DNA of 46,288 nucleotides from Escherichia phage 2H10, in the sequence record NC_049950.1; one strand, written 5' to 3'. Shown one piece after another: positions 935 to 45,039 of this stretch (the stretch's first letter is position 1; every line of letters begins with the position of its first letter). The translations under genes and the position numbers were made by a program. The notes below the pieces were generated by a model. That model saw nothing but the letters and a program-made list of their open reading frames with translations. It was not told where the DNA came from and searched no databases.

Positions 935-1454
935 ATGGAAGTCAACAAAAAGCAGCTGGCTGACATTTTCGGTGCGAGTATCCGTACCATTCAGAACTGG
1001 CAGGAACAGGGAATGCCCGTTCTGCGAGGCGGTGGCAAGGGTAATGAGGTGCTTTATGACTCTGCCGCCGTTATAAAATGGTATGCCGAAAGGGATGCTG
1101 AAATTGAGAACGAAAAGCTGCGCCGGGAAGTTGAAGAACTGCGGCAGGCCAGCGAGACAGATCTCCAGCCAGGGACTATTGAGTACGAACGCCATCGACT
1201 TACGCGTGCGCAGGCCGACGCACAGGAACTGAAGAATGCCAGAGACTCAGCTGAAGTGGTGGAAACCGCATTCTGTACTTTCGTGCTGTCGCGGATCGCA
1301 GGTGAAATTGCCAGTATTCTCGACGGGATCCCCCTGTCGGTGCAGCGGCGTTTTCCGGAACTGGAAAACCGACATGTTGATTTCCTGAAACGGGATATCA
1401 TCAAAGCCATGAACAAAGCAGCCGCGCTGGATGAACTGATACCGGGGTTGCTGA

Positions 1455-1480
<26 letters not shown>
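935..1480 (+). CDS. nu1: Terminase small subunit
   Basis: 181 aa, MEVNKKQLADIFGASIRTIQNWQEQGMPV..., recognised as lambda Nu1. It lies directly after cosB. Confidence 0.95.
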
Positions 1481-5161
<3,681 letters not shown>

Positions 5162-41074: not shown

Positions 41075-41374
41075 AAAAATTCCTTAATACTGATAACTGG
41101 GCGCACTATACACACGTTCCTGAAGAAAGCTATAGTTTTTTGATGGGGTTGAAGATGGCTGGATGTCTAAAATAAACATTGCTTCATATGTTCAACTATG
41201 CGTTAATGATTGCGTCGGTTTGAAGAACAGACGATATACGAAGTAGTTTACTAAAGCAGTTCTCATTTCAGGTGTTATTCACTTATTCCTTCTTTGAGTC
41301 TCTCCAATTAAGTACGAAGTCGTTTCTGTTATACAAGCCATTTATGCCGAAAGGCTCAAGTTAAGGAATGTAGA

Positions 41375-41590
41375 ATGTCAAATAAAATGACTGGTTTAGT
41401 AAAATGGTTTAACGCTGATAAAGGTTTTGGCTTTATTTCTCCTGTTGATGGTAGTAAAGATGTGTTTGTGCATTTTTCTGCGATTCAGAATGATAATTTT
41501 CGAACCTTATTTGAAGGTCAAAAGGTTACCTTCTCTGTAGAGAGTGGTGCTAAAGGTCCTGCAGCAGCAAATGTCATAATTACTGATTAA
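41375..41590 (+). CDS. cspB: Cold shock protein CspB
   Basis: 71 aa, [53 protein letters not shown]... Confidence 0.95.
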
Positions 41591-41871
41591 AATTCATAGT
41601 TTGTCTGTATACGATAACGAAGAAGGCTGATGCCTGAGTGGAGATACAGACAGAGTGGTGAATATTGGATCTCTTTAATAAATAGTAAGGAGGTCCAATA
41701 CATGAAACAATGGCCAGCATATTTGGCAATAACTTAATCAGGAAAAGTATGCTAACCATTGTGGTGAAGTGCAGGTTTGCTGCATGAATAGTTTTACAGC
41801 AGAAGCTAACTGCTGGCATAGCAAAACAAAGTGCGTAAGTGGATGACTCCCACAAAAAGCACCACAATATT

Positions 41872-41953: not shown

Positions 41954-42124
41954 TCACGCTACAGCTTTAAGATTTGTCTGGAATACTTTGTTGCAATGAG
42001 GGCAGATCAAAAGGGCACCTTTTTGTACTCTTGAAAAACTGTGTTCTGACTCTTGGGTGCAGTTTGGGCAGGAACATTTAACGAGATAATTACGGCGTGA
42101 TTTTGAGTCTTTACGTTCTGACAT
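41954..42124 (-). CDS. 56-aa zinc-ribbon protein (CxxC...CxxC)
   Basis: MSERKDSKSRRNYLVKCSCPNCTQESEHSFSRVQKGALLICPHCNKVFQTNLKAVA. AGGA lies 8 nt upstream. The ORF extends to 42175. Confidence 0.55.
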   Translation of the reverse strand: MSERKDSKSRRNYLVKCSCPNCTQESEHSFSRVQKGALLICPHCNKVFQTNLKAVA

Positions 42125-42342
42125 AGGCTTTTCCTGTATAAATGGCCGTATACAGTACACTAAATATGAAAACATATCTCGTATTATTATTTAATACATG
42201 ATTTTCTTTTAAAATAATTACCCACATTTTTAATGTGTCTGTTTTTTAGCGCCGTTGAGAACAATGTTTGCTATAAAAACTAACCCATAGACTCCGATCT
42301 TTTCAAACATATTGCACCATCTGTGTACATCGGGGCGAGGAT

Positions 42343-42558
42343 ATGAAATCAATGGATAAGTTAACAACAGGTATCGCCTATGGCACATCGGCTGGTAATG
42401 CTGGTTTCTGGGCATTGCAGTTACTCGATAAAGTAACTCCGTCACAGTGGGCTGCAATCGGTGTGCTGGGTAGTCTGGTTTTTGGCCTGCTGACGTATCT
42501 GACAAACCTTTATTTCAAGATTAAAGAAGACAGGCGTAAGGTTGCGAGAAGAGAGTAA
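42343..42558 (+). CDS. essQ: Class II pinholin, phage 21 S type, with dual-start motif
   Basis: [26 protein letters not shown]...[15 protein letters not shown], 71 aa. Met1-Lys-Ser-Met4 as in S21 71/68. Confidence 0.9.
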
Positions 42559-42562
42559 TCCA

Positions 42563-43114
42563 ATGACACAAGACTATGAACTGGTTGTGAAAGGAGTCCG
42601 CAATTTTGAGAATAAAGTGGCGGTAACTGTAGCCTTACGGGACAAAAAACGCTTTGACGGTGAAATTTTTGACCTGGACATCTCGCTGGACCGTGTTGAA
42701 GGTGCCGCGCTTGAGTTTTATGAGGCAGCAGCGAGAAGGAGCATCAGACAGGTCTTCCTGGATGTTGCTGCCGGGTTATGTGAAGGGGATGAGCTGTCGC
42801 CGGAAAAGCGCCCCGTAATTTTAGAGGCGCAGAATGTGTGGATAACCTACAAAGGAAAGCTACCGGGAAGAATTACTGGTTCTCTGAAGACGCCACCGAC
42901 GGCATTGCGGTCAGAAAAAGATGATATTGAATCGCCCATTGAAAAACTGGAGGGCAGCGTCGCTGATCTGAATAAAAAATTGTCGGTGCTGATTCCTTCT
43001 GAAGATGAAAAAAAACGCCGCGATGAGCAGTTTGCGGCGTTTTACGATTATTGCATTGAAGTTACTCGCAGGAATTTTGTGAAGATTTTTGAGGAGGGTA
43101 AATCTCTTCAGTAA
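42563..43114 (+). CDS. DUF1327 (YdfR-like N-terminus) protein with a long unrelated C-terminal extension
   Basis: MTQDYELVVKGVRNFENKVAVTVAL...ALEFYEAAARRSIRQVFL matches K-12 YdfR from memory. 183 aa here versus ~100 aa. Confidence 0.65.
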   Translation: MTQDYELVVKGVRNFENKVAVTVALRDKKRFDGEIFDLDISLDRVEGAALEFYEAAARRSIRQVFLDVAAGLCEGDELSPEKRPVILEAQNVWITYKGKLPGRITGSLKTPPTALRSEKDDIESPIEKLEGSVADLNKKLSVLIPSEDEKKRRDEQFAAFYDYCIEVTRRNFVKIFEEGKSLQ

Positions 43115-43322
43115 GCTTAATGGCGGACGCTGCAATTAATTCAGGAAGGTCCGCAAGGTCATCTGTCAGTGGATATGATGAAAAATCGGCGGCAGTTCTG
43201 TTAAGAAGCGCTTTAACTAATTCCTTTTCCTTCTCCGGCAACAAGTTGATTAGAGCTACGACTGCTTGCCTGAGTGCGATTAAATCAGCAAAAGTTTGTT
43301 TTGGTAGATTTGTGTAATCCAT
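43062..43322 (-). CDS. Unrecognised 86-aa acidic helical protein, antisense inside the lysis cassette
   Basis: ATG 43322 with AGGTG 3 nt upstream. MDYTNLPKQTFADLIALRQAVVALINLLPEKEKELVKALL... Its 3' end overlaps the DUF1327 gene by 53 nt. Confidence 0.45.
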   Translation of the reverse strand: MDYTNLPKQTFADLIALRQAVVALINLLPEKEKELVKALLNRTAADFSSYPLTDDLADLPELIAASAIKLTEEIYPPQKSSQNSCE

Positions 43323-43435
43323 AGTCACCTCTGTGTTTATCAGATTGACATCCTCCTCCCGCCAGTGCCCATCACTGGTGAGGTAAGATTTAACATATCC
43401 GGGGATTTGAAGCCGATAAATCCTGATAAATATCC

Positions 43436-44463
<1,028 letters not shown>

Positions 44464-44826
44464 ATTAATATTAAATCGGATTATTTTTAGCGCTGAATGT
44501 GAAATTTAAATAAAAAGGACTCTTCCATGAGTCAAAATTCTTGAAATCTTAAGGGTAAGATAAAAGGTCATTAGACAGAATGACACGTTTTATTAATAAA
44601 TAAAGCTATTGTTTCATTCGTGTGTTTTTCTTTACAAAAGTAATCCTTGCTATGGTTGGTTAATCATGCGTTAATGGTGTTCTGGTTTGTTACAAAATTA
44701 TCTGAAGCAGTCATTGTTATAATTTTATTATTTGTACCTCTTGAGATTTCCTTGTTGGTTTTTCTCTCTGATATTTTTTTTCGGACCATTCTGCCCAAGG
44801 GCTAACTTCTTCAAAAGGTAATAATG

Positions 44827-45039
44827 ATGTCTAACAAAATGACTGGTTTAGTGAAATGGTTTAACCCTGAAAAAGGTTTTGGTTTCATCACGCCGAAAGA
44901 TGGTAGCAAAGATGTGTTTGTCCATTTCTCAGCTATTCAGAGCAACGATTTCAAAACGTTAACTGAGAATCAGGAAGTCGAATTTGGTATTGAGAACGGA
45001 CCTAAAGGCCCCGCGGCTGTTCATGTAGTGGCACTTTGA
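44827..45039 (+). CDS. cspI: Cold shock protein CspI
   Basis: [70 protein letters not shown], 70 aa. Confidence 0.95.

Follow-up and report, generated by a model that had tools for sequence, protein, structure and literature searches.

Lysis cassettes of Shiga toxin (Stx)-converting and other lambdoid Escherichia coli prophages are usually viewed as a fixed S-R-Rz unit. Lambdoid phages are also known to carry "morons" (the Hendrix/Juhala concept), for example, lambda bor beside Rz and Gifsy-2 sodCI in a tail operon, and lambda OOP RNA acts on cII mRNA by convergent 3' overlap. Here we describe a cassette located between the holin gene (S) and the endolysin gene (R) of Escherichia phage 2H10, in a DNA stretch of 46,288 nucleotides (record NC_049950.1; "the window" refers to this whole stretch). 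The 491-bp cassette (42899-43389) comprises a coding module fused in frame to the upstream ydfR gene (X), a hairpin predicted to act as a terminator, an 86-aa gene on the opposite strand (Y) with its Shine-Dalgarno (SD) sequence, and a palindrome. We assign a probability of roughly 55% to the reading that this is an antisense moron cassette, that is, an independently transcribed unit inserted at the stop codon of a ydfR gene of the 114-aa type, in a variable slot between holin and endolysin within a Qin-like late lysis operon.

At the end of the window is the late region of an E. coli prophage that is complete, lambdoid, and Qin-like, and the locus belongs to this region. The stop codon of the holin gene essQ (42558) and the start of the lysozyme gene rrrQ (43436) are 877 bp apart, in agreement with the interval of ~880 bp given in a first-pass annotation of this DNA. 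That annotation had also stated that S is followed directly by R in phage 21-type cassettes. This is correct for phage 21 itself, where S stands directly before R, but not in general, as ydfR is commonly found between the two, for example, in the Qin prophage of E. coli K-12. Qin carries the same genes in the same order (essQ-ydfR-rrrQ-rzpQ), shares the neighbors cspB, cspF, cspI, ynfU, and gnsB, and is nearly identical in DNA to the window over the first ~69 ydfR codons. By contrast, K-12 ydfR encodes 103 aa and overlaps rrrQ by 4 nt (L002 4055-4058), and the whole cassette is absent. In the window, YdfR has a C terminus of the BP-4795 type that runs into X, and Y is placed between YdfR-X and rrrQ. 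DNA homology with K-12 stops near 42770 and restarts at the rrrQ start. The 4-nt overlap in K-12 suggests translational coupling of rrrQ to ydfR, which would be lost in carriers of the cassette.

Comparison with phage BP-4795 positions the 491-bp segment exactly at the ydfR stop codon. In BP-4795, YdfR has 114 aa and the C terminus ...GSLKTPPLA*, and a spacer of 50 nt separates its gene from R. The window matches this arrangement collinearly through codon 112 (...GSLKTPPTA), and collinearity resumes with TTAACATATCC at 43390. The GC content of the cassette is 0.42-0.43, compared to 0.50-0.53 in the flanks. The cassette thus resembles morons in being present or absent between otherwise collinear phages (it is missing from both K-12 Qin and BP-4795), in its low GC content relative to its flanks, in having its own predicted terminator, and in residing inside a late operon. 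As in the case of lambda bor, Y reads opposite to the lysis genes in a similar neighborhood. There are also differences from morons: the promoter of Y is a candidate only, insertion of the cassette extends the upstream gene in frame by a sense-strand module, different cargos reuse the conserved flanks of the cassette (X with the terminator inside it and, opposite, the palindrome and spacer), and Y is neither a lipoprotein nor a known virulence factor. In several E. coli genomes, Y is disrupted by an insertion sequence of the IS3 family that has entered the cassette close to the X stop and the 3' end of Y (L008 1245-2458; H1, H17).

The plus-strand gene between essQ and Y is an open reading frame (ORF) of 183 codons counted from its ATG (42563-43114); a start at the TTG at 42542 would yield 190 aa. 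Codons 1-112 (42563-42898) constitute a DUF1327/YdfR protein, with a score of 144.9 bits for PF07041 (cutoff 25), residues 1-112 aligned to model positions 1-92 of 93, collinearity with the BP-4795 YdfR (which ends ...TPPLA*), and the placement between an S21-type holin and a lysozyme in a lambdoid late operon. The first-pass annotation had described the first ~75 residues as YdfR-like and the following ~105 residues as unrelated. Similarity to K-12 does end near codon 69-75 in both DNA and protein, but DUF1327 extends over residues 1-112, and according to Pfam and to the collinearity with BP-4795 the foreign extension amounts to only 71 aa. This extension, X (residues 113-183; 42899-43114 including the stop codon, plus strand), is predicted to be a helical or coiled-coil module and matches phrog_2091 at positions 113-183 as well as phrog_36381 and phrog_15975. 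In genomes identical to the window, the Prokaryotic Genome Annotation Pipeline (PGAP) flags the YdfR part as a pseudogene, "incomplete, missing C-terminus." Based on its match to phrog_2091 over positions 1-183 of 183 and the presence of the exact sequence on at least 499 contigs, the supposed pseudogene is a recurrent fusion protein, and we correct the annotation in this sense. PGAP is not consistent in this respect: the window-type DUF1327-X fusion is called a pseudogene (42563-42898), and an analogous fusion in a related group of loci (clade B, see below; H167-H172) is called an intact "DUF1327 domain-containing protein." Structure prediction for the 183-aa protein gave a predicted local distance difference test (pLDDT) score of 36 and was unusable.

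The antisense gene Y (43322 to 43062, minus strand) begins with an ATG at 43322 and ends with a stop codon at 43062-43064. It is preceded, at a distance of 5 nt, by the SD sequence GAGGTG (43331-43326), and its 3' end overlaps that of X by 53 nt (43062-43114). The first-pass annotation had reported this convergent ORF, its start, ribosome-binding site, length, and overlap, and we confirm all of these. It had also called the product acidic and helical, which is borne out by an isoelectric point (pI) of 4.6, a net charge of -5.5, and a three-helix AlphaFold2 model from the single sequence (pLDDT 72). Y was annotated by PGAP as a coding sequence for a hypothetical protein (WP_001306174.1), and it matches phrog_2572 with E=1.2e-53 over positions 1-86 of 86.

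Word-indexed searches together with an exhaustive HMMER search recovered a very small Y family. Clade A comprises the 86-aa forms of E. coli, with variants 91-100% identical. Two further clades are distant, namely clade B (P0021; 89-93 aa, 38-41% identity to Y of the window) and clade C (P0020; 93 aa, ~49% identity, given as 57% in the HMMER listing). Homologues from clades B and C also match phrog_2572. A 975-aa TPR/CHAT protein (P0019) and P0022 surfaced in the exhaustive search and were judged to be spurious relatives. Conservation of the minus-strand frame among relatives, on which the first-pass annotation had staked its proposal, was found in all three clades at identities down to 38-41%. 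The Y frame is free of stops in six of six sequences representing the three clades, and each of the other five frames contains 2-12 stops. Between clades, nucleotide identity is 0.57-0.66, changes are most frequent at third and least frequent at second codon positions, the uncorrected ratio of nonsynonymous to synonymous change (pN/pS) is ~0.5, and insertions and deletions comprise whole codons. The product is acidic in every clade (pI ~4.6), and an SD is conserved across clades, with an SD-like TAAGGA in clades B and C. As no frame other than that of Y is open in the six sequences, a chance or noncoding ORF can be rejected, and by this evidence Y is a real protein-coding gene. From the structural model, we propose that its product is an acidic three-helix cytoplasmic protein.

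Searches for known relatives of these proteins outside DUF1327 were negative. The X part and Y had no match in Pfam, NCBIfam, or PADLOC beyond DUF1327, and YdfR-X, Y, and two sibling cargos of the slot described below had no match in PADLOC-DB at E<=1. Nothing significant was found when the Y model was compared with PDB and BFVD using Foldseek. AcrIIC4 came up as a candidate in a profile search of PDB sequences at E=0.2 only and was dismissed, with nothing relevant from Foldseek against PDB. The label "DUF1823" in the PhiR12 records could not be reproduced with Pfam at E<=0.1.

A GC-rich hairpin lies within X, and the first-pass annotation, which drew attention to a palindrome at 43362-43378, had overlooked it. 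On the Y strand, reading from 43043 down to 43008, it consists of AAAACGCCGC-N12-GCGGCGUUUU followed by four more U, thus completing a tract of eight U. It begins 18 nt past the Y stop codon, has a 10-bp stem and a free energy of -14.6 kcal/mol in RNAfold, and is encoded by the most conserved codons of X, EKKRRDEQFAAF. Its core, AACGCC...GGCGTT, is invariant in 11 variants. Between the X sequences of L009 and L097, 32 of 222 positions differ, but none of these falls within positions 106-151 of the 73-aa X form, which correspond to the hairpin. In clade B, where the encoded peptide is RHHENGVA, the stem is kept by one compensatory GC-to-AU double change plus extra inner pairs. A stem with U8, conserved in all clades, suggests that Y has its own factor-independent terminator, and this assignment is well supported by sequence and position. 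On the late (plus) strand, a weaker U-tract, UUUUACGAUUAUU, follows the hairpin, which could therefore also impede late-strand transcription that lacks antitermination. We regard this hairpin as more informative than the palindrome.

At every Y locus, a late-strand ORF converges on Y, with an overlap of 53 nt in clade A and 59 nt in clades B and C, and the C-terminal ~65 aa of the converging ORF are homologous across loci (BLASTP of X from the window against the 73-aa protein of clade C, E=9e-6 over the last 35 residues). Among the loci found, Y was never seen without X. The pair occurs in six architectures at two genomic positions, between S and R and after Rz. X can be fused to DUF1327 of the Qin/BP type (183 aa; window, CFT073, PhiR63_1), to a divergent Stx-type DUF1327 (169 aa; PhiR12_2, L006), or to a full YdfR of the K-12 type (174 aa; L099 and L100, with E. 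coli genomes also carrying this form, called intact by PGAP), which amounts to three independent fusions. The K-12-type fusion also exists with an in-frame insertion of 69 aa (L101-L105). Free-standing X is found as a 67-aa gene directly after S (P0061, on at least 393 contigs; L112, L113) and as a 73-aa gene after Rz, the start of which overlaps the Rz stop and which is followed by a DUF1441 small terminase gene (L009, L094-L098). Given that X is both fused and free-standing, it is by sequence a separable coding module. The 69-aa insertion in the clade B YdfR-X proteins has the sequence VEFPGHMASREKVGKGG...YALL by comparison to L099 and L100 (for example, L104 5224-5955, minus strand).

The interval between S and R is a variable slot, as the first-pass annotation had proposed should be examined: apart from its absence from K-12 Qin and BP-4795, the cassette is one of several, with three unrelated antisense genes found between the same flanks. 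These are Y, an ORF of 210 aa (Stx1_499 and Stx2_14744, where it is unannotated, and L115, where it is called as a gene, 1031-1663, minus strand), and a phrog_1853-type ORF of 104-122 aa (Stx2_12E129_yecE, L116). Approximately 100 bp from the R start codon to the palindrome are common to S-R intervals with different antisense genes. The sequences diverge immediately past ...CACTGGCG, and after another 44-60 nt an individual SD and ATG follow for each cargo. The perfect palindrome itself, CCAGTGcccatCACTGG (CCAGTG-N5-CACTGG, 43362-43378), had been noted as a hairpin upstream of the antisense gene. It is indeed there, but it is not specific to this gene and instead marks the right boundary of all cargo types. 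On the other flank, all cargo types have X with the hairpin, and X sometimes flanks no cargo. The hairpin with U8 is intact in L106, L115, L116, and L117; in L107 and L108 it is degraded, the stem being mismatched and the U-run interrupted. The cargo proteins of the slot had no match in Pfam, NCBIfam, or PADLOC.

Members of the 210-aa family with 53-65% identity are present in Salmonella and in metagenomes. These homologues adjoin sodC (Sod_Cu) or reside in lambda-like tail operons in the opposite orientation (L120/L121 2501-3133; L122 626-1258). Judged by these positions, the 210-aa orphan gene hops between classical moron sites, and the proximity of a sibling cargo of the slot to sodC in Salmonella prophages is a further likeness to morons. 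In Stx1_499 and Stx2_14744, an annotated sense "hypothetical protein" of 263 or 162 aa overlaps the antisense 210-aa ORF (L106 2501-3292, plus strand, against 3041-3676, minus strand; L108 likewise). The tail of the sense ORF in these Stx phages is probably read-through and thus an annotation error.

A candidate promoter of Y is located in the conserved spacer block adjoining the endolysin start codon (43390-43435, minus strand), with a -35 element TTTATC (43420-43415), a 17-nt spacer, and a -10 element TATGTT (43397-43392). Matches to the consensus are 3/6 and 4/6, which is weak, and the 17-nt spacing is found in all clades, with TATGTT or TATTGT as the -10 element. A 19-nt block, ATATTTATCAGGNTTTATC, hardly varies among clades A, B, and C, the coding regions of which are only ~60% identical. 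Clade C is no exception, and there no endolysin gene follows.

According to our preferred reading, insertion would have added to the ydfR-R junction a helical late-strand module of ~65-70 aa (X), the embedded hairpin with its U-tract, Y with its own SD, and a palindromic right boundary. Y would be transcribed from the conserved block beside the endolysin start codon. A predicted start near 43385 would place the palindrome ~7 nt from the RNA 5' end, so that it probably stands close to where the Y transcript begins. The Y RNA would end at the hairpin near 43008 and have a length of ~375 nt. Y would be made while late transcription is off, either in the lysogen or in early infection. The first-pass annotation had likewise suggested cargo expressed in the lysogen, with a possible role in exclusion, immunity, or control of lysis. 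Late transcription antiterminated by Q would pass the hairpin and traverse Y against its reading direction, yielding YdfR-X, R, and Rz, and should silence Y, whether through collision or through an RNA duplex. What the sequences show is the anatomy, the insertion boundaries, the coding status of Y, its linkage with X, and the exchange of cargo; the promoter of Y, when Y is expressed, and whatever phenotype it may confer are inferred.

Several observations weigh against this reading. A simple scan upstream of Y called no consensus sigma-70 promoter, and the conserved block also constitutes the plain ydfR-R spacer of BP-4795, which has no cargo. Together with the weak consensus match, this is why the promoter of Y is treated as a candidate here. 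The test for covariation in the hairpin was not significant, with 94 of 500 shuffles scoring as well, and the U-tract of clade B is poor. Within clades, the ratio of nonsynonymous to synonymous substitution rates (dN/dS) of Y, and also of X, was based on too few substitutions to discriminate between frames. In the literature on YdfR/DUF1327, on the accessions, and on morons or antisense genes in lysis cassettes, we found only a paper on an interaction with RNase E. Finally, the strict linkage of X and Y may indicate a functional pair as opposed to a free-standing moron.

Such a two-protein pair is a possible explanation, but we consider it unlikely. X, produced late either alone or as YdfR-X, might neutralize Y made in the lysogen and thereby confer self-immunity, or Y might restrain X or YdfR until lysis, with the convergent overlap coupling their expression inversely. 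Consistent with this, the pair moved jointly to the site after Rz, where X is free-standing and its start overlaps the Rz stop, free-standing X with Y is also found directly after S, and the length of the overlap is conserved (53-59 nt). However, X is also found beside two unrelated antisense cargos, or at times without any, and its linkage to Y is partly forced because the terminator of Y and its last 17-19 codons lie inside X. Between clades, X is under weak constraint, with a pN/pS of ~0.9 and a poor alignment. No toxin-antitoxin or defense family was matched, and convergent genes are atypical of type II toxin-antitoxin systems, which is also why the antitoxin-like role considered in the first-pass annotation does not fit. 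A partner that regulates YdfR is conceivable because the N-terminal domain of YdfR interacts with RNase E: residues 1-72 of K-12 YdfR bind the catalytic half of RNase E, and YdfR may bind RNA (PMC13232886). No other lead on function came to light for this neighborhood. RNase E binding by the protein of the window is plausible, its N-terminal ~69 codons being near-identical to K-12 in DNA.

A more elaborate version, which appears unlikely to us, combines both proteins with transcriptional interference. X and Y would then form an unrecognized two-component convergent switch of lambdoid lysis cassettes. Y, produced in the lysogen or during early infection, would have a target in the host or in a phage, and late X, free or fused to YdfR, plus collision or duplex formation at the shared terminator would turn Y off, thus licensing the phage's own lysis. 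In such a switch, Y may block late functions of superinfecting relatives or may modulate RNase E together with YdfR. If this were true, the shared flanks would define an exchangeable cassette system for genes of this type.

Quite unlikely, in our view, is that the antisense RNA itself is the product. The Y transcript would then pair with the late mRNA between X and R and, through RNase III processing or transcriptional interference, tune endolysin production and the timing of lysis. The predicted Y transcript would be complementary to the late mRNA over its entire length, no sequence of the X region is better conserved than the terminator hairpin, and R is no longer translationally coupled to ydfR as proposed for K-12. 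The arrangement is also similar to lambda OOP and cII, with a short convergent transcript (here predicted) that overlaps a phage mRNA at its 3' end by ~50 nt and has an intrinsic terminator. Unlike OOP, however, the predicted antisense transcript of the window encodes a conserved protein. The SD-preceded, intact ORF of Y has a conserved amino acid pattern and charge and changes length by whole codons, the slot holds other cargos whose protein nature is clear (for example, the family of 210 aa at 53-65% identity), and Rfam gave no match beyond noise, all of which argue against an RNA product.

That the locus is decay debris, with a broken ydfR pseudogene and a fortuitous or dying Y of no function, is very improbable: the PGAP flag on the YdfR part, the IS3 elements that break the cassette in some genomes, and the useless 183-aa model are outweighed by the recurrence of the 183-aa form (end-to-end phrog_2091 match, at least 499 contigs), three independent DUF1327-X fusions, conservation of Y across three clades, and the presence of the cassette in deposited, host-propagated phages.

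These phages are PhiR63_1, PhiR12_1, PhiR12_2, PhiR12_2_star, PhiR12_5, and PhiR5_1, with ECOR13, E. coli C, or K-12 as recorded hosts, and the carriers are thus not only decayed prophages. Among phage records, 436 have an S21-type holin, 104 a DUF1327/X match, and six Y. The exact Y sequence is present on at least 1000 contigs, and of 5426 complete E. coli genomes, 314 contain the Y region, in every case on the chromosome. Clade C is absent from these complete genomes. Cluster records list E. albertii members for Y and E. albertii and E. fergusonii members for the 183-aa protein. In a scan of genome representatives, the cassette was found only in E. coli. Between essQ and rrrQ, these genes included, the window shows 100% identity to E. 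coli 2014C-3061 and 99.4% identity to CFT073, APEC O1, and S88.

Both genes are thus already present in public databases, as hypothetical proteins and as PHROG families without functional annotation, with end-to-end matches of both products of the window (phrog_2572 for Y; phrog_2091, phrog_1085, and phrog_36381 for YdfR-X forms). We did not find previous descriptions of a cassette inserted at the stop codon, of the linked and overlapping X-Y pair, of the embedded terminator, or of shared flanks with interchangeable antisense cargo. The holin-endolysin interval is a recurrent slot into which different orphan genes are plugged backwards between reusable flanks. These genes are candidates for roles in lysogenic conversion, exclusion, anti-defense, or lysis timing in pathogenic E. 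coli, including uropathogenic (UPEC), avian pathogenic (APEC), and Shiga toxin-producing (STEC) strains, and the slot offers a simple route to mine such genes.

The surrounding genes are arranged in the order ydfT (Q-like), cspF, cspB, ynfU, essQ, the YdfR-family ORF, Y, rrrQ, rzpQ/rzoQ, and cspI. With a PF04971 holin, a lysozyme carrying a segment resembling a signal-anchor-release (SAR) sequence, and an Rz gene with embedded Rz1, the lysis genes make up a cassette of the phage 21 type as judged by family matches. The product of essQ (42343-42558, plus strand) is an S21-type class II holin of 71 aa (PF04971, E=7e-34), named essQ by PGAP in identical genomes. The gene rrrQ (43436-43969, plus strand; PF00959, PGAP) encodes a lysozyme whose N terminus bears a hydrophobic, SAR-like segment. 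It starts 321 nt past the X stop, and no obvious SD is apparent in the 15 nt before its ATG. It is followed by rzpQ (43966-44463, plus strand; DUF2514, Rz-like, PF10721 and K-12 annotation), in which an rzoQ-like Rz1 gene is embedded (44159-44413, plus strand; ORF with the lipobox LTSC, K-12 annotation). An ORF similar to ynfU that encodes a zinc ribbon (41954-42175, minus strand; 73 aa by ORF call, 171 nt according to PGAP) lies antisense just upstream of essQ and is another backwards gene within the late region. An Rfam scan returned a sub-threshold match to GcvB, which we took as noise, and otherwise only cspA-type thermoregulators nearby. cspB and cspI are each preceded by a full 5' untranslated region of this type (RF01766; 156 and 97 bits; 41214-41653 and 44669-45000+), and cold-inducible transcription units thus bracket the lysis cassette on the late strand.

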